From the IMG/VR virus record IMGVR_UViG_3300045988_174153: a stretch of DNA of 49,561 nt, one strand, 5' to 3'. The position numbers and the translations under genes were made by a program. Below the pieces are notes generated by a model. That model did no database searches, was not told the DNA's origin, and was given only the letters and a program-made list of their open reading frames with translations. The stretch is from a virus. Positions 19,707 to 22,541 of this stretch are shown here, piece by piece. The number at the start of each line of letters is the position of its first letter. Position 1 is the stretch's first letter.

Positions 19707-19740
19707 CCCGGAAATGTGGCGAAGGACACACCGCTGGGGC
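19707..19740. repeat. 34-bp block immediately upstream of the -35; identical copy at 20424-20457
   Basis: CCCGGAAATGTGGCGAAGGACACACCGCTGGGGC occurs at both sites. Confidence 0.9.
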
Positions 19741-19769
19741 TTGACACGGGGGGTGGCGGTTGATAGAAT
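19741..19769 (+). promoter_or_regulatory. Rightward promoter P1: TTGACA-17 nt-TAGAAT
   Basis: Consensus -35 at 19741-19746 and -10 at 19764-19769. The downstream leader contains GAGAGAAAGGAA. Confidence 0.65.
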
Positions 19770-19808
19770 GGAGGTACAACAAAGGGGAAAGAGAGAAAGG
19801 AAACCCCA

Positions 19809-19895
19809 ATGGACATCGAGATCGACTTCTTCGAGGAGCTCGGCGGCTACTACACCGCAGACCTGGCAGACGTCCTGGAGGACTTCGAAGGCTGA
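19809..19895 (+). CDS. 28-aa acidic micro-protein (MDIEIDFFEELGGYYTADLADVLEDFEG)
   Basis: Consensus promoter, SD GAGAGAAAGGAAACCCCA-ATG, high GC3, and a terminal hairpin directly after the stop. Too short for the ORF track. Confidence 0.5.
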   Translation: MDIEIDFFEELGGYYTADLADVLEDFEG

Positions 19896-19898
19896 CCC

Positions 19899-19926
19899 GA
19901 AGGCCCCCGCCCCGGCGGGGGCCTTC
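19899..19926 (+). terminator. GC hairpin after the 28-aa ORF
   Basis: GAAGGCCCCCGCC cc GGCGGGGGCCTTC. No T-tract. Confidence 0.5.
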
Positions 19927-19956
19927 CCATGCCCGCAGACGCGCCCAGAATGGCCC

Positions 19957-20023
19957 CTGAGGCGCCTTCGGAGCCGGGGTGGGGCCACCCTACCGGCGAA
20001 GGCCCGCCAGGCCCTCAGAGGGC
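19957..20023. repeat. 67-bp three-block element, copy R (reverse complement of 19263-19329)
   Basis: CTGAGGCG-22 nt-ACCCTACCGG-16 nt-CCTCAGAGGGC. Confidence 0.75.
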
Positions 20024-20180
20024 CGTCTGCGAGCTCTGAGGGGCACCCCCGAAGGCGGGGCCCGGGCTGTGCGCCTCCGGAGACGGCCCGAGCGATTACG
20101 CAACGTCGGTGTTGCGAAAATCCCGGAACTTGATATGTGAGCTTGGTCTCACTTTCGCGAAATCGGGACTAAGGTCCTAG

Positions 20181-20300
20181 CTCGAGCAACCATGTGAGCA
20201 ATCTCACACTCTGAGAGGCTCTCGAGCAACCATGTGAGAAACATCACAATGTGGAGTACATCACATTCGGAGGGGCTCTCGAGGCTCTCGAGCAACCATG
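20181..20300. repeat. Three direct copies of CTCGAGCAACCATG (with extended similarity) in ORF-free DNA
   Basis: Copies at 20181, 20221 and 20287. The first two extend to ..CATGTGAG.A..TCACA. Confidence 0.8.
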
Positions 20301-20423
20301 GAAAATACAATTTGTGATCTGGAGCACACTTGCTCGGGCAGGTCTCCGACGCCGTCGTCGGCCCGAGCTCTCGTGTGCGCAGTCGGGCCCGGAGTCCGCC
20401 GCGCCGAAGGCGCCCCGAGCAAC

Positions 20424-20457
20424 CCCGGAAATGTGGCGAAGGACACACCGCTGGGGC
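20424..20457. repeat. Second copy of the 34-bp upstream block
   Basis: Identical to 19707-19740. Confidence 0.9.
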
Positions 20458-20486
20458 GTGACAGCGCCGCTCGACTGTGCGAGGAT
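20458..20486 (+). promoter_or_regulatory. Degenerate promoter copy P2 (GTGACA-17 nt-GAGGAT)
   Basis: Aligns position for position with P1 upstream and with P3 downstream. Confidence 0.3.
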
Positions 20487-20520
20487 GGATACATCGGAAC
20501 GACGAGAGAAAGGAAGTCCG

Positions 20521-20742
20521 ATGACCACGAAGTACCCCTACAGCCAGGCCCTCGCCGAAGCCCTCACCGAGAAGCTCGGAGGCCTCGCCTTCGTCCTGCC
20601 CGGCGGCGCAGTCCAGGCCGACACCCCCGACGGCACCCTGACCGTCTACGCCGACGGCGCAGTCCGGGTCCGCGAGTGCGGCGAGACCGAAGCCTGGCCG
20701 ACCCTCCGGAGCGCCGTCGCCGACTGGGGCGTGGAAGTGTGA
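20521..20742 (+). CDS. Hypothetical 73-aa protein
   Basis: ATG after GAGAGAAAGGAAGTCCG. High GC3. The N-terminal 90 codons of the track ORF are read-through. Confidence 0.65.
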   Translation: MTTKYPYSQALAEALTEKLGGLAFVLPGGAVQADTPDGTLTVYADGAVRVRECGETEAWPTLRSAVADWGVEV

Positions 20743-20754
20743 CACAGCCCACAC

Positions 20755-20778
20755 GGGAGGGGCTTGACAGCCCCTCCC
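20755..20778 (+). terminator. Hairpin whose loop is the -35 hexamer of P3
   Basis: GGGAGGGGC TTGACA GCCCCTCCC, 13 nt after the stop at 20742. Confidence 0.5.
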
Positions 20779-20827: not shown

Positions 20828-21127
20828 ATGAACACCTGGAAAGTCGCCAACGCCGTCGTCCGGCACCTCGAAGCCACGATCCCCGTCTACGACGTCTCCG
20901 AGCAAGGCTACAGCCTCTACGTCAGCCTCGTAGACGGCCGCAGCTTCCTCGTCGACGCCCCGCTGGAGGGCGGCGTCAGGATCACCCCTTGTGTGCGCAC
21001 CTACGAAGGCGGCCATCGGCTGCTGGAGGACCTGGAGGCCGAGCTCGCGGACGCCGGCTTCGACGTCCGCCGAACCCTCGCCACCGAGCTCCGTGTGCGC
21101 GACGACGTAGGCGGGTGGGCCTGGTGA
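20828..21127 (+). CDS. Hypothetical 99-aa protein
   Basis: ATG after GAGAGAAAGGAAGTCCG. Possible distant paralogue of the 20521 product (shared ..G.VR...C..E.. pattern). Confidence 0.65.
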   Translation: MNTWKVANAVVRHLEATIPVYDVSEQGYSLYVSLVDGRSFLVDAPLEGGVRITPCVRTYEGGHRLLEDLEAELADAGFDVRRTLATELRVRDDVGGWAW

Positions 21128-21306
21128 GGCGCTTCTGGACCGTCGTCTCCGTCGCAGCCGGCATCCTGGCCGGCTGGGGCGCCGGCGAAGGCCGGGCCCC
21201 GAGCTGGGACGCCTACGCCGGAGTCCGGCCCGAGCCGACCGTACTCGGCCTCACAGTGACGCACATCACGAACATCGGGCTTGACATCCCCGCCGACGCC
21301 CGATAG
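21124..21306 (+). CDS. Possible 60-aa membrane protein (VRRFWTVVSVAAGILAGWGAG...)
   Basis: GTG overlaps the upstream stop (GTGA). High GC3. One hydrophobic helix. The stop TAG lies inside the P4 -10. Confidence 0.45.
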   Translation: MRRFWTVVSVAAGILAGWGAGEGRAPSWDAYAGVRPEPTVLGLTVTHITNIGLDIPADAR

Positions 21307-21309
21307 ACT
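21281..21309 (+). promoter_or_regulatory. Promoter P4: TTGACA-17 nt-TAGACT
   Basis: Hexamers at 21281-21286 and 21304-21309. Confidence 0.55.
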
Positions 21310-21346
21310 AGAGATATCAGCGAAGACGAGAGAAAGGAACCAGCTG

Positions 21347-21472
21347 ATGCACACCACCACCTTCATCCCCGAAATCGAAGTCCCCGACTTCGTCGCCAGC
21401 CTTCGGGCGGACCGCGAGCGCCAGCGAGCACGACGCCGGAGCCGCCGTCAGAACCGCGGATGGGAGGCCTGA
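21347..21472 (+). CDS. 41-aa protein with Arg-rich C-terminus
   Basis: ATG after GAGAGAAAGGAACCAGCTG. High GC3. Confidence 0.5.
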   Translation: MHTTTFIPEIEVPDFVASLRADRERQRARRRSRRQNRGWEA

Positions 21473-21477
21473 GAACG

Positions 21478-21597
21478 ATGACCTGGCTCGACTTCGCACA
21501 AGCCATCTGGGACGCCTTCTACGGACTCATGTCCACCTCCGAAGAGCTCGTGGAGCACCTCCCGACGCCGTTGCAGTGCTTCTTCGACTGGTGTTAG
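21478..21597 (+). CDS. 39-aa protein (MTWLDFAQAIWDAFYGLMSTSEELVEHLPTPLQCFFDWC)
   Basis: ATG 10 nt after GGGAGG. High GC3. Followed by a hairpin. Confidence 0.45.
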   Translation: MTWLDFAQAIWDAFYGLMSTSEELVEHLPTPLQCFFDWC

Positions 21598-21607
21598 CCA
21601 TCTCACA

Positions 21608-21635
21608 CCGGAGTCCGCTTGACAGCGGACTCCGG
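21608..21635 (+). terminator. Hairpin whose loop is the -35 hexamer of P5
   Basis: CCGGAGTCCGC TTGACA GCGGACTCCGG, an 11-bp stem. Confidence 0.55.
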
Positions 21636-21647
21636 ACCGACTAGACT
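21619..21647 (+). promoter_or_regulatory. Promoter P5: TTGACA-17 nt-TAGACT
   Basis: Hexamers at 21619-21624 and 21642-21647. The leader TAGACTAGAGATATCAG.. is shared with P4. Confidence 0.55.
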
Positions 21648-21683
21648 AGAGATATCAGGAAGACAGAGAGAAAGGAAACCCTG

Positions 21684-22319
21684 ATGTTTGATCGTTACCT
21701 CACCGCCGTCTCCGACGCCGACCTCCTGGACGCCGCCTCCGACGCCCTCGTGGACGCGGGGTGGAGCTTGGACGAAGACCGAGAGCTGCCTTTCGAGGCG
21801 GACTACTACGGGGATCCGGAGGCCGCCGTCGAGCTCGACTCCGAGTGGAGCGGGATCCAGGCCGACGCCGTCGGCAGGCTCTGGGACCGGCTCTCCGACG
21901 ACGAGCGGGTGGAGCTTTGGCTGCACGACTGCGCGGGGCAGGACCCCGACGATCCCGTCGACGCCGAGACGGTCTGGGAGCTGATGGAGGCCGCCGTGCT
22001 GGAGCGGCTCGGGAGCGTCTACGAAGACACGGGTGCCTCCGTGACGGAGGCCTGCACCCGAGCTCTGAGGCTGACTTCGGCGGGGGCCTTGGCCCGGGTG
22101 CTGGGTCTGTACGAAGCCGCCCGAGCGGAGGACCAGGCACACTGGGGCAGGCCTTCGAGGGTGCGGACCTTCGACGTCGAGCACGGCACCGTGGTGGTCC
22201 GGAGCGAAGGCGGCGCCGTCGAGGCGAGGCTGAGGCCGGCCTTCGAGGAATGCGATGACGAAGGCGCCGTCATCGTGGAGATGCTCGGGGACGCGCTCCG
22301 CGAAGTCGGGCTTGACTGA
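21684..22319 (+). CDS. Strongly acidic 211-aa protein
   Basis: ATG after AGAGAGAAAGGAAACCCTG. The sequence is dominated by D/E (DEDRELPFEADYYGDPEAAVELDSE..). Confidence 0.75.
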   Translation: MFDRYLTAVSDADLLDAASDALVDAGWSLDEDRELPFEADYYGDPEAAVELDSEWSGIQADAVGRLWDRLSDDERVELWLHDCAGQDPDDPVDAETVWELMEAAVLERLGSVYEDTGASVTEACTRALRLTSAGALARVLGLYEAARAEDQAHWGRPSRVRTFDVEHGTVVVRSEGGAVEARLRPAFEECDDEGAVIVEMLGDALREVGLD

Positions 22320-22335
22320 CGTTTCACGTGAAACG
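22320..22335. promoter_or_regulatory. Perfect 16-bp palindrome CGTTTCACGTGAAACG
   Basis: Immediately after TTGACT (22312-22317), which overlaps the stop of the 211-aa gene. Confidence 0.6.
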
Positions 22336-22364
22336 GACTGGGGCCGCCGGAGAGGGAGGAGCTA

Positions 22365-22472
22365 TTGAGAATCAGTATCACTAAGATCTGGGTTGGAATA
22401 GTTGGACTGATGTATGCGGCGTGGTTCGTCTGCGTCGTCGCCGAGGCGATAAGTTACCCTACGGTAGGGTAA
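22365..22472 (+). CDS. Possible 35-aa hydrophobic peptide (MRISITKIWVGIVGLMYAAWFVCVVAEAISYPTVG)
   Basis: TTG start 5 nt after GGGAGGAG. One TM-like helix. A canonical terminator follows 26 nt downstream. Confidence 0.4.
   Translation: MRISITKIWVGIVGLMYAAWFVCVVAEAISYPTVG
22454..22472. repeat. Palindrome TTACCCTAC-g-GTAGGGTAA carrying the GGTAGGGT/TAAGTTAC motif family
   Basis: 9-bp arms, flanked by ATAAGTTAC (22449) and GGTAAGTAA (22468). Confidence 0.7.
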
Positions 22473-22497
22473 GTAATACAAGTTGGAGTGGTGAGAG

Positions 22498-22541
22498 AAG
22501 TAGCACCTGGGACTAACGTCCCAGGTGCTACTTGTATTTTT
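22498..22541 (+). terminator. Canonical rho-independent terminator
   Basis: AAGTAGCACCTGGGA ctaacg TCCCAGGTGCTACTT followed by GTATTTTT. Confidence 0.85.

Follow-up and report, generated by a model that had tools for sequence, protein, structure and literature searches.

The window analysed here, 49,561 nt of the IMG/VR virus record IMGVR_UViG_3300045988_174153, is a tailed-phage genome of ~49.5 kb, probably with a lytic lifestyle, and it uses one ~90-nt regulatory module at least eight times. Five copies of this module stand before small orphan genes in a rightward array at 19707-22541. The finding is real, statistically solid and conserved: the grammar of the motifs and its excess over chance, the covariation of two stems, the selection on the open reading frames (ORFs) and the swaps and deletions at module borders were all seen directly. 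We think it likely that the stretch from 19.7 to 22.5 kb is a rightward cluster of small genes composed of five tandem modules with overlapping functions, and that it is probably expressed early. An earlier note on the same DNA had described seven self-contained cassettes in this place. The ORFs of 28, 73, 99 (+60), 41+39, 211 and 35 amino acids (aa) that it listed lie where it put them, but the leader is present in only five cassettes, and upstream of the 35-aa ORF there is just a plain GGAGG ribosome-binding site, without module promoter or leader.

A promoter and leader module of fixed order

The elements of the module follow each other in a constant order: a 16-nt palindrome of the form TGTGA-N6-TCACA (the box), a gap of 10-11 nt, the -35 hexamer, a spacer of 17-18 nt, the -10 hexamer, a leader, an invariant 12-mer, 5-8 nt and an ATG. 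The -35 hexamer is TTGACA, TTGACT, TTGACG or TTGCAC (GTGACA in the second array module of the window), and the -10 hexamer is TAGACT, TAGAAT, TATGAT, TACACT or TATGGT (GAGGAT in that same module); the leader between -10 and 12-mer measures 17-21 nt, or 36 nt in one module. Seven of the eight modules were parsed by pattern and the remaining one, PL10, by hand. The box, which is found 10-11 nt upstream of every module -35, had been missed by the earlier note.

The 12-mer, GAGAGAAAGGAA, occurs ten times in the window compared with 0.21 copies expected. Five exact copies (19791, 20504, 20811, 21328 and 21666) end the leaders of the array, as had been claimed, and the leader is wider than the array, with four of the ten copies preceding the ATG of genes on the minus strand (16713, 14243, 10146 and 7002). 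All nine gene-associated copies sit 5-8 nt upstream of the ATG. The tenth, a 12-mer-like site at 26786 (minus strand) without a start codon and beside a terminator-like hairpin after the DHFR gene, was treated as unrelated; apart from this site and the copy at 7002, all copies stand at a fixed distance from a promoter. The 12-mer is absent before the structural genes (27.8-45.5 kb), and other phage genes have ordinary ribosome-binding sites of the GGAG or (A)GAAAGGAG type. The array was compared in 27 genomes, namely the window and 26 relatives, and in these the 12-mer is exact in 132 of 134 copies despite a synonymous divergence of 0.13-0.2 in the neighbouring genes.

Boxes with at most one mismatch are about tenfold enriched (15 in the window versus 1.45 expected; three are perfect), and in the relatives their half-sites are kept, whereas the central 6 nt are variable. 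A joint scan for box and promoter recovered eight sites, including the first leftward promoter at 18746, compared with 0.1 in shuffles; promoter-like sites in the array region number six, versus 1.2 +/- 1.0 in shuffles. Among 2.9 million IMG/VR contigs, the composite TTGAC-N18/19-TAGAMT-N14-22-GAGAGAAAGGAA matched this phage family only. Matches of a 17-mer, TAGACTAGAGATATCAG, to two IMG/VR loci (L062 and L091) were dropped as chance, as nothing else in these loci is common with the window. In Rfam no family reached the gathering threshold anywhere in the window, and at E <= 1 the stretch 18600-22650 had only sub-threshold chance matches.

All five array modules are on the plus strand. P1 (19715-19811) comprises the box TGTGGCGAAGGACACA (19715-30), TTGACA (19741-46), TAGAAT with an upstream TG (19764-69; spacer 17), the 12-mer (19791-802) and an ATG at 19809. 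P2 (20432-20523), with its box at 20432-47, 12-mer at 20504-15 and ATG at 20521, has a sub-consensus promoter in the window (GTGACA at 20458-63, 17 nt, GAGGAT at 20481-86); in relatives TTGACA is present, and the -10 is always GAGACT, GAGGAT or GAGAAT. In P3 (20738-20830) the box (20738-53) contains the TGA stop of the preceding 73-aa gene, and TTGACA (20764-69), an 18-nt spacer, TATGAT (20788-93), the 12-mer (20811-22) and the ATG (20828) follow. P4 (21255-21349) and P5 (21592-21686) share TTGACA (21281-86; 21619-24), a 17-nt spacer and TAGACT (21304-09; 21642-47), with boxes at 21255-70 and 21592-607, 12-mers at 21328-39 and 21666-77, and ATGs at 21347 and 21684; the P5 box contains the TAG stop of the 39-aa gene. 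The earlier note had assigned a sigma70-like promoter to each ORF or ORF pair. This is borne out at 19741, 20764, 21281 and 21619, where 10-11 of 12 positions agree with the consensus, but not for the 35-aa ORF, and the 73-aa unit has only the sub-consensus version. The patchwork of duplicated regulatory DNA that it reported is present as well: 19707-19740 and 20424-20457 are identical at 34 of 34 positions, identity is 92% over the 50 nt that precede the ATGs at 20521 and 20828, and the leaders before 21347 and 21684 are alike. The identity of the upstream halves of P1 and P2 is confined to this window and a few relatives and is therefore best taken as a recent conversion.

Three complete modules lie on the minus strand. 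PL16 (16704-16817) has its box at 16817-02, TTGACT at 16790-85, TAGACT at 16766-61, AAGAGAAAGGAA at 16724-13 and an ATG at 16706; PL14 (14232-14329) its box at 14329-14, TTGACG at 14303-298, TACACT at 14279-74, the 12-mer at 14254-43 and an ATG at 14234, directly followed by a 186-aa gene (13674-14234); PL10 (10137-10229) its box at 10229-14, TTGCAC at 10203-198, TATGGT at 10180-75, the 12-mer at 10157-46 and an ATG at 10139, with a 69-aa ORF downstream. Since the same module thus also heads at least three leftward operons (at 16.8, 14.3 and 10.2 kb of the window), including those for replication and nucleotide metabolism, we regard it as the standard promoter unit of the phage. Its density differs between the arms, with five modules in 2 kb on the right arm versus one per 2.5-4 kb on the left arm. 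The module resembles promoters of the host primary sigma factor, and on this ground it is probably an early promoter unit.

Several sites carry only a part of the module. In the first leftward promoter (18693-18746, minus strand) TGTGAATTTGGTCACA (18731-46), which is a perfect box, is followed at a distance of 9 nt by TTGACT and, after a spacer of 17 nt, by TAGGGT; the 12-mer is lacking. Its box was also weighed as part of a rightward TGnTATAAT promoter in a CRP-like class-II arrangement, which was dropped because a leftward promoter with the standard module spacing is simpler. At 6993-7064 (minus strand) a leader copy, AAGAGAAAGGAA, lies 6 nt upstream of the ATG of a 798-aa DUF3987 gene; an 11-bp hairpin (7040-7064) and TATAAG are found upstream of it, with neither box nor -35, i.e. 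a leader minus the promoter part. A possible promoter of the same class (AGTGACGGACGACACA, 10 nt, TTGACG, 17 nt, TACCCT) without 12-mer leader is located at 47769-47823 (minus strand), at the end of the radical-SAM gene.

The eight bases AGAAAGGA of the 12-mer are complementary to the end ...CCUCCUUUCU-3' that 16S rRNA has in Gram-positive bacteria and actinobacteria in general. Such pairing leaves the leading GAG and the final A of the 12-mer unexplained.

Two covarying stems

The 10 nt upstream of the -35 are complementary to the first 10 nt of the spacer. In P3 (CGGGAGGGGC/GCCCCTCCCG, 20754-63 / 20770-79), P5 (CGGAGTCCGC/GCGGACTCCG, 21609-18 / 21625-34) and PL14 (GGGCGGGGGC/GCCCCCGCCC, with TTTCTGT after the stem) the -35 hexamer itself, TTGACA or in PL14 TTGACG, is the 6-nt loop of a GC stem of 10-12 bp. 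The loops of PL16, PL10 and P4 are larger: the -35 of PL16 and PL10 lies inside an 11-bp hairpin, and P4 has a weaker one (ATCGGGC/GCCCGAT, 21274-80 / 21298-304). The sequence of this stem varies between slots and genomes, and its pairing is preserved. Among 20 distinct P3, P5 and PL14 sequences 98% of cells pair, compared with 37-58% in slid controls, in which the partner was moved by 1-3 columns; compensatory changes occur at eight of the ten pairs, a result equalled in 0 of 500 shuffles, and two relatives (L109 and L114) hold more compensatory variants of the PL14 stem. Fold z-scores range from -3.9 to -6.0 at P3, P5, PL16 and PL14. Because the pairing is conserved independently of the sequence, it argues for a nucleic-acid structure instead of a protein-binding site.

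Of the GC-rich hairpins or terminators that the earlier note had seen in each cassette, those at P3, P4 and P5 straddle the next -35 and are not separate end elements. The combination of stem and U-run that defines an intrinsic terminator is found only at 22498-22533, where a canonical 16-bp stem and U-run close the array, and partly at PL14 (CCCTTTCTGT); the hairpins at P3, P4, P5 and 19899-19926 have no U-run.

The second stem belongs to the leader. Its 5' arm begins at a fixed 6 nt past the -10 hexamer with (C/T)ATC(G/A)G(A/G/C), the predicted transcription start, and these 6-7 nt pair with the ATG and the 4 nt preceding it. Three haplotypes (ATCGGA...TCCGAT, ATCAGG...CCTGAT and ATCAGC...GCTGAT) are found, all of them complementary. 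Over 106 scorable modules, P3 of the window among those with the stem, 97.9% of positions pair, versus 22-52% in slid controls. The loop of 15-20 nt holds the 12-mer.

Cargo genes, relatives and host

The micro-ORFs are real genes under purifying selection, as judged from their polymorphism. The ratio of non-synonymous to synonymous polymorphism (pN/pS) is 0.11 for the 28-aa gene (18 distinct alleles), 0.16 for the 73-aa, 0.14 for the 41-aa and 0.25 for the 39-aa gene; higher values were obtained for the 35-aa gene (0.37), the 211/215-aa gene (0.4-0.5) and the 60-aa ORF (0.59, from few sequences). Other gene callers and pipelines called the micro-ORFs independently, and a coding pattern is visible in the GC content at the three codon positions. 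No reading frame spans a leader, apart from the 60-aa ORF, which extends into P4 as far as its -10; the similarity of the leaders is thus not part of one longer coding frame, which the earlier note had named as an outcome that would speak against it.

The genes themselves are as follows. The 28-aa gene (19809-19895) encodes an acidic peptide with an isoelectric point (pI) of 4.05 and not a single Lys or Arg; 3 nt past its stop a hairpin with a 12-bp GC stem (19899-19926; -30.9 kcal/mol over a 46-nt stretch) is located. The 73-aa gene (20521-20742) has an acidic product (pI 4.3) and a third-position GC of 0.91. It is followed by the 99-aa gene (20828-21127), the least stable cargo, and by the 60-aa ORF (21124-21306), whose GTG start overlaps the 99-aa stop and which encodes a hydrophobic segment; this ORF traverses P4 from the box via -35 and spacer to the -10, the TAG of which is its stop. 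P4 is followed by a bicistronic cargo (21347-21597) of 41 aa (21347-21472) and an acidic 39 aa (21478-21597). The 211-aa gene (21684-22319, 70% GC) specifies a very acidic, lysine-free orphan (0 of 211 residues; pI 4.06), and the 35-aa gene (22365-22472) a hydrophobic peptide with a TTG start here and an ATG in some relatives. Taken as a group, the cargo is acidic (pI 4.0-4.7), nearly lysine-free and rich in GC (68-72%, compared with ~59% for the genome). The 28-aa and 39-aa genes have 59% GC, yet their third-position GC is as high as in the others. The 41-aa peptide is the exception in charge: an acidic N-terminal half is joined to an Arg-rich tail, RADRERQRARRRSRRQNRGW, giving a pI of 11.6. 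The high GC content and the near absence of lysine suggest that the cargo genes were acquired from a source of higher GC.

That the ORFs behind the leaders are unrelated, as had been proposed, agrees with our comparisons: BLASTP among the cargo ORFs detected no similarity, and profile-profile comparison (hhalign) among the 73-, 99-, 211- and 69-aa families gave probabilities below 1%. Paralogy of the cargo, which the strand-strand-helix look of the C-terminal parts might have indicated, was ruled out by these two comparisons. PHROGs, Pfam and PADLOC contained no family for any cargo ORF, a sequence search of the PDB with the 211-, 99- and 73-aa proteins returned nothing below E = 0.2, and the AlphaFold2 model of the 211-aa protein, built on an alignment of 18 sequences, is unusable (mean predicted local distance difference test score 49.6). 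Homology searches with the 211-aa and 69-aa cargo found matches only within the same phage population, none with an informative name; for the 211-aa protein there are 770 matching protein clusters in public metagenomes, one of which is named 'MAG TPA ... Caudoviricetes sp.'. A role of the cargo in host takeover or anti-defence, which the earlier note had put forward, is with these results still a guess. The Arg-rich tail of the 41-aa peptide resembles the arginine-rich motifs with which N-type antiterminators bind RNA; that the peptide might act on the hairpins of the array is pure speculation.

The array is syntenic in the 26 relatives, each with five leaders except L012, which has four. Slot 1 holds the 28-aa gene in the window and 21 relatives and an unrelated 69-aa ORF in the other five (L021, L033, L040, L047 and L050), so different cargo does stand behind a module of the same slot, as the earlier note had suggested one look for. 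The replaced segment extends from just past the -35 to 19886-19889, and the hairpin at 19899-19926 is its right border. L012 lacks cassette 2: the upstream flank of P2 is fused to P3 within the box, as expected of recombination between two modules, and the leader then drives the 60-aa ORF. The 186-aa gene behind PL14 is missing in three of the nine relatives compared, with the junction exactly at the leader (14244); there PL14 would drive the gene that comes next, whose identity to the 215-aa gene of the window is 54%. Leader variants move between slots. Depending on the genome, the 41-aa gene is found behind one of three leader haplotypes; of the 211-aa gene there are two divergent alleles (~211 and ~215 aa), which differ in the leader type that accompanies them. 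The 99-aa gene ranges from 24 to 142 aa in the relatives, via internal deletions and fusions, and its region is either a deletion hot spot or a decaying gene; the left ends of the deletions in five relatives (L009, L028, L032, L085 and L088) cluster at 20855-20860, near the repeat GCCAACGCCGTCGTC. The view of the array as a plug-in platform therefore holds in so far as a reusable unit precedes unrelated small genes, with exchange and loss at its borders, but the unit is genome-wide and its cargo is mostly conserved.

Between slots 1 and 2, a non-coding block (20085-20310) with three CTCGAGCAACCATG repeats is the best-conserved part of the interval in the 27 genomes, more conserved than the flanking genes. 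Five boxes (20136, 20193, 20233, 20250 and 20313) form a cluster at 20136-20328 whose spacing is fixed in all 27 genomes. The block also has a CGCAAC/GTTGCG hairpin, no promoter was detected in it, and it could be a replication origin, a regulator sink or an RNA gene.

Further repeats surround the array. Just left of P1, at 19443-19514 and 19546-19662, there are two 30-nt direct repeats (CCCCGAAATTC.AAAA.GG.CCTCTTTGTA) and three GTAAGTTAC...GTAGC repeats. A palindrome related to these, ATAAGTTACCCTAC/GTAGGGTAAGTAAT, lies at 22445-22477 inside the 35-aa ORF, similar sites thus bracketing the array. Directly past the 211-aa stop follows a perfect 16-nt palindrome, CGTTTCACGTGAAACG (22320-22335). 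The end of the 211-aa gene, GGGCTTGACTGA, is a -35-like remnant with no -10 after it. In the divergent control region a near-perfect palindrome of 44 bp (18864-18907; AAATTCTGACAGTGACTCTCAA / TTGACAGTGACTGTCAGAATTT) adjoins an AT-rich stretch (18950-19080), and non-coding DNA at 19245-19352 contains two 38-nt inverted-repeat arms that are 82% complementary and 32 nt apart.

The window has ~59% GC and may be a circularly permuted complete genome. Its minus strand carries, at ~0.9-18.7 kb, genes for replication and nucleotide metabolism (among them thymidylate synthase, family-A DNA polymerase, helicase, dCTP deaminase, thymidylate kinase, a WhiB-family regulator at 12254-12559 and the 798-aa DUF3987 protein, a probable primase/helicase). 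The plus strand, at 22.6-45.5 kb, carries lysis-like, packaging and structural genes, including an endolysin-like protein, DHFR, the large terminase (27778-29331), a portal protein and the probable tape-measure protein, encoded by an ORF of 1607 aa. At the right end, again on the minus strand, a C5 methylase, a radical-SAM protein and the anaerobic ribonucleotide reductase NrdD (47823-49561, cut off by the end of the window) are encoded; the radical-SAM protein is probably the NrdG activase of NrdD. Neither an integrase, repressor or helix-turn-helix gene nor a CRP-family gene was found among the scanned phage ORFs, and the window contains no tRNA genes.

The host is probably a member of the Actinobacteria, since a WhiB gene is present, and WhiB, NrdD and the probable NrdG fit an anaerobic or facultative actinobacterial host. 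The large terminase agrees only in part: its best match is Stenotrophomonas virus Jojan60 (52.6% identity), followed by Microbacterium and Arthrobacter phages (38-40%). Among GenBank phages the family has no cultured close relative, the best terminase match being that of 52.6%; a megablast of 19400-22900 against these phages found no DNA match, and a scan for the large terminase in one genome per GTDB species found no relative. IMG/VR contains 58 loci whose terminase shows 96-100% identity, the contigs reaching ~49 kb in length, and several of the sample numbers are presumably those of Human Microbiome Project assemblies. The phage is common in human-associated metagenomes, widespread and uncultured. 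A 113-kb contig with the locus has the same gene order and no host genes within the 20 kb read; being a suspected concatemer, it is uninformative on the host.

Readings of the module and related systems

How the parts of the module may work together can be outlined as follows. Host RNA polymerase with its primary sigma factor would start at each module, and a dimeric factor on the box, two helical turns upstream of the -35, would modulate all module promoters together; candidates are a host protein of the CRP/GlxR type or a phage protein. The arms of the -35 hairpin occupy promoter positions that are free of information, namely the gap upstream of the hexamer and the initial 10 nt of the spacer. 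RNA coming from the preceding cassette would fold into this hairpin just before the -10 and be stopped or trimmed there, by which neighbouring cassettes would be insulated and occlusion of the promoter by read-through avoided. The new mRNA would begin with a stem between its 5' end and the start-codon region, by which it would be stabilised, and the loop of this stem would keep the purine-rich 12-mer single-stranded as a strong Shine-Dalgarno sequence and aid ribosome loading; the terminator at 22498-22533 would end the block. Being repeated, the modules may furthermore serve as portable homology, through which leaders would be homogenised, cassettes deleted and new ORFs brought into a promoter-proximal position.

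A number of points weigh against this reading. Promoter activity, early timing, start position, termination, mRNA stabilisation and the identity of the factor on the box are all predicted from the DNA. The covariation comes largely from comparing paralogous slots (P3 versus P5), and the sequences are interrelated. Lacking a U-run (partial in PL14), the internal hairpins may terminate poorly; the P4 hairpin falls within the 60-aa ORF, P1 is without a convincing hairpin around its -35, and P2 has only a weak one in the window. The leader stem includes the start codon and could therefore reduce translation instead. CRP classically activates from -41.5 or -61.5 and helical repeats of these positions. 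With the start site taken 7 nt past the -10, the box is centred at about -53.5 to -55.5; a centre near -53.5 is neither of the classical positions, and the phage has no detected CRP-family gene. The complementarity of the 12-mer to 16S rRNA refers to Gram-positive 3' ends in general. Finally, the 26 relatives have largely identical sets of cargo genes in an unchanged order, turnover being occasional, and several indels of the left arm lie off the modules (14683, 15165, 15585-16128 and 17578-18080). With cargo mostly shared and most left-arm indels elsewhere, recombination at modules may therefore simply follow from the presence of repeats, without having been selected as a function. A bolder version, possible in our view but tentative, holds that the module is a selected, self-insulating cassette system controlled by a single factor through the shared box, that the repeats are dedicated recombination sites for the exchange, among members of the phage population, of small accessory genes, possibly with counter-defence functions, and that those bases of the 12-mer which do not pair with 16S rRNA mark the mRNAs for a class-specific post-transcriptional factor. 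Candidates for the latter are a nuclease of the kind of T4 RegB, a repressor of the kind of RegA (likewise of T4), or the 41-aa peptide acting on hairpins.

The array may be explained in other ways. On the one hand, it could be the product of tandem duplication of one ancestral cassette of promoter, leader and ORF, in which the ORFs diverged beyond recognition and the regulatory repeats are the relic. The modules are clearly homologous and in tandem, the cargo order is the same in the 26 relatives, the cargo has a common composition, and small phage proteins diverge fast, as the pN/pS of the 211-aa gene illustrates. We nevertheless hold this explanation to be quite unlikely, because the sequence and profile comparisons found no similarity among the 73-, 99-, 211- and 69-aa families, the cargo spans 28-211 aa, the module also heads unrelated leftward operons, slot 1 is occupied by two unrelated ORFs and the 186-aa gene comes and goes behind PL14. 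On the other hand, the array might be read mainly as one early RNA from P1 to 22533, in which the -35 hairpins are RNase III sites or protectors of 3' ends and the internal promoters are minor. The missing U-runs of the internal hairpins, with 22498-22533 as the sole canonical terminator, the passage of the 60-aa ORF through the P4 hairpin and a P2 that is sub-consensus in every genome all fit such a transcript, which appears improbable all the same: near-consensus -35 and -10 hexamers with their spacing are retained in five slots of 27 genomes among variable neighbouring bases, the same grammar heads leftward operons that have no upstream partner, and a strong hairpin immediately follows slot 1.

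A different interpretation concerns a single sub-element and is compatible with tandem self-contained modules as regards the rest: the boxes could be operators of a phage repressor, comparable to the stoperators of Cluster A mycobacteriophages, in which case the array would be an immediate-early region under repressor control, and the five boxes clustered at 20136-20328 would serve for control or titration with high affinity. The early promoters of phiC31 reportedly carry conserved inverted repeats, a possible parallel. The excess of boxes, their fixed distance from every module promoter, the retention of half-sites around a variable centre and the conserved spacing of the cluster, within the best-conserved stretch between slots 1 and 2, are in line with operators. 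However, no repressor, integrase or helix-turn-helix gene is among the scanned ORFs, and the box lies upstream of the -35, clear of the core promoter, where an activator fits better; we therefore regard a repressor as doubtful.

If the module works as outlined, it represents a compact rule for the onset of gene expression in a widespread, human-associated phage that is uncultured: regulator site, promoter, insulator, 5' stem of the mRNA and ribosome-binding site appear to be united in about 90 nt. Modules also mark sites of accessory genes, whose selected cargo would be candidate host-takeover or counter-defence factors, and the module is a candidate portable expression part for high-GC Gram-positive bacteria.

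The statement of the earlier note that no named system matches was too strong, as the promoter-early stem-loops (PeSLs) of T4-type phages, morons and the start-associated sequences (SAS) of Cluster K mycobacteriophages are close analogues. In a PeSL, a stem-loop precedes a sigma70 promoter, which is followed by a Shine-Dalgarno sequence and the ATG (Arbiol et al. 2010, PMC2839356; Comeau et al. 2014, PMC4122927); PeSLs are concentrated in hyperplastic regions, among orphan ORFs, and genes are deleted, inserted and replaced through them (PMC2839356, PMC4122927). Mini-circles that form when neighbouring elements recombine are a further mark of PeSLs. The module is likewise a composite intergenic element in many copies, with a near-consensus sigma70 promoter, a stem-loop and, at the 3' end, a Shine-Dalgarno sequence and ATG; it is densest among small, non-essential orphan ORFs, junctions of indels and replacements fall inside the element in close relatives, and the stem-loop would isolate the cassettes transcriptionally. 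In contrast to PeSLs, in which the stem-loop lies just upstream of the promoter, the stem-loop here encloses the -35; upstream of the -35 there is a TGTGA-N6-TCACA box and a GC-rich stem instead of an AT-rich region, and an extra leader stem joining 5' end and start codon and an invariant 12-mer as ribosome-binding site are added. Moreover, the module also heads core replication operons, turnover is modest among the 26 relatives, and the carrier is no T4-type myovirus but a phage of unrelated lineage, which has a long tape-measure gene and whose host is probably one of the Actinobacteria. The module is an analogue of PeSLs and not a member by descent. Gene exchange at repeated cassettes has here an independent counterpart in an unrelated, probably Actinobacteria-infecting phage, in support of the view that phage genomes in general can owe their plasticity to repeated regulatory cassettes.

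The SAS/ESAS elements of Cluster K have a 13-bp consensus, GGGATAGGAGCCC, located 3-7 bp before start codons, mostly ATG, with 93 sites listed across the genomes (Pope et al. 2011, PMC3203893), and their authors raised the same puzzle of positions that are conserved beyond 16S pairing (PMC3203893). Both systems have an invariant, asymmetric motif of 12-13 nt with a Shine-Dalgarno core 3-8 nt before the ATG, oriented with the gene, restricted to non-structural genes of various families and in many copies with an inverted repeat upstream. They differ in sequence (GAGAGAAAGGAA here versus GGGATAGGAGCCC there), in the tie of our copies to a promoter at a fixed distance (bar 7002 and 26786), in the inverted repeats, which covary here and follow a 17-bp consensus there, and in number, with ~9 copies per genome here, fewer than in Cluster K.

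Morons, in the concept of Hendrix and colleagues, are individually acquired, have their own unrelated regulatory signals and are typically expressed from prophages. The cassettes resemble them in the combination of a small ORF with its own promoter and a terminator-like hairpin, in deviant base composition (68-72% versus ~59% GC) and in a patchy occurrence in relatives; unlike morons, they share one module throughout the phage, and no lysogeny genes were found among the scanned ORFs. The box matches the TGTGA-N6-TCACA palindrome of CRP/FNR-type sites and is as such a predicted site. Repeats have also been described from Gordonia phage Vardy (a 50-bp motif in five copies; PMC9671010) and, in intergenic positions, from halovirus HF2 (PMC8707807). 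These are, like the module, short intergenic repeats that bear promoters before several small genes of the non-structural region; in contrast to it, no -35 hairpin, palindromic box or leader stem was reported for them, nor comparative evidence of gene exchange at the repeats. The kind of cassette is hence already known, and what is new here is the -35 inside a hairpin loop, the palindromic box, the leader stem at the start codon and the invariant 12-mer.

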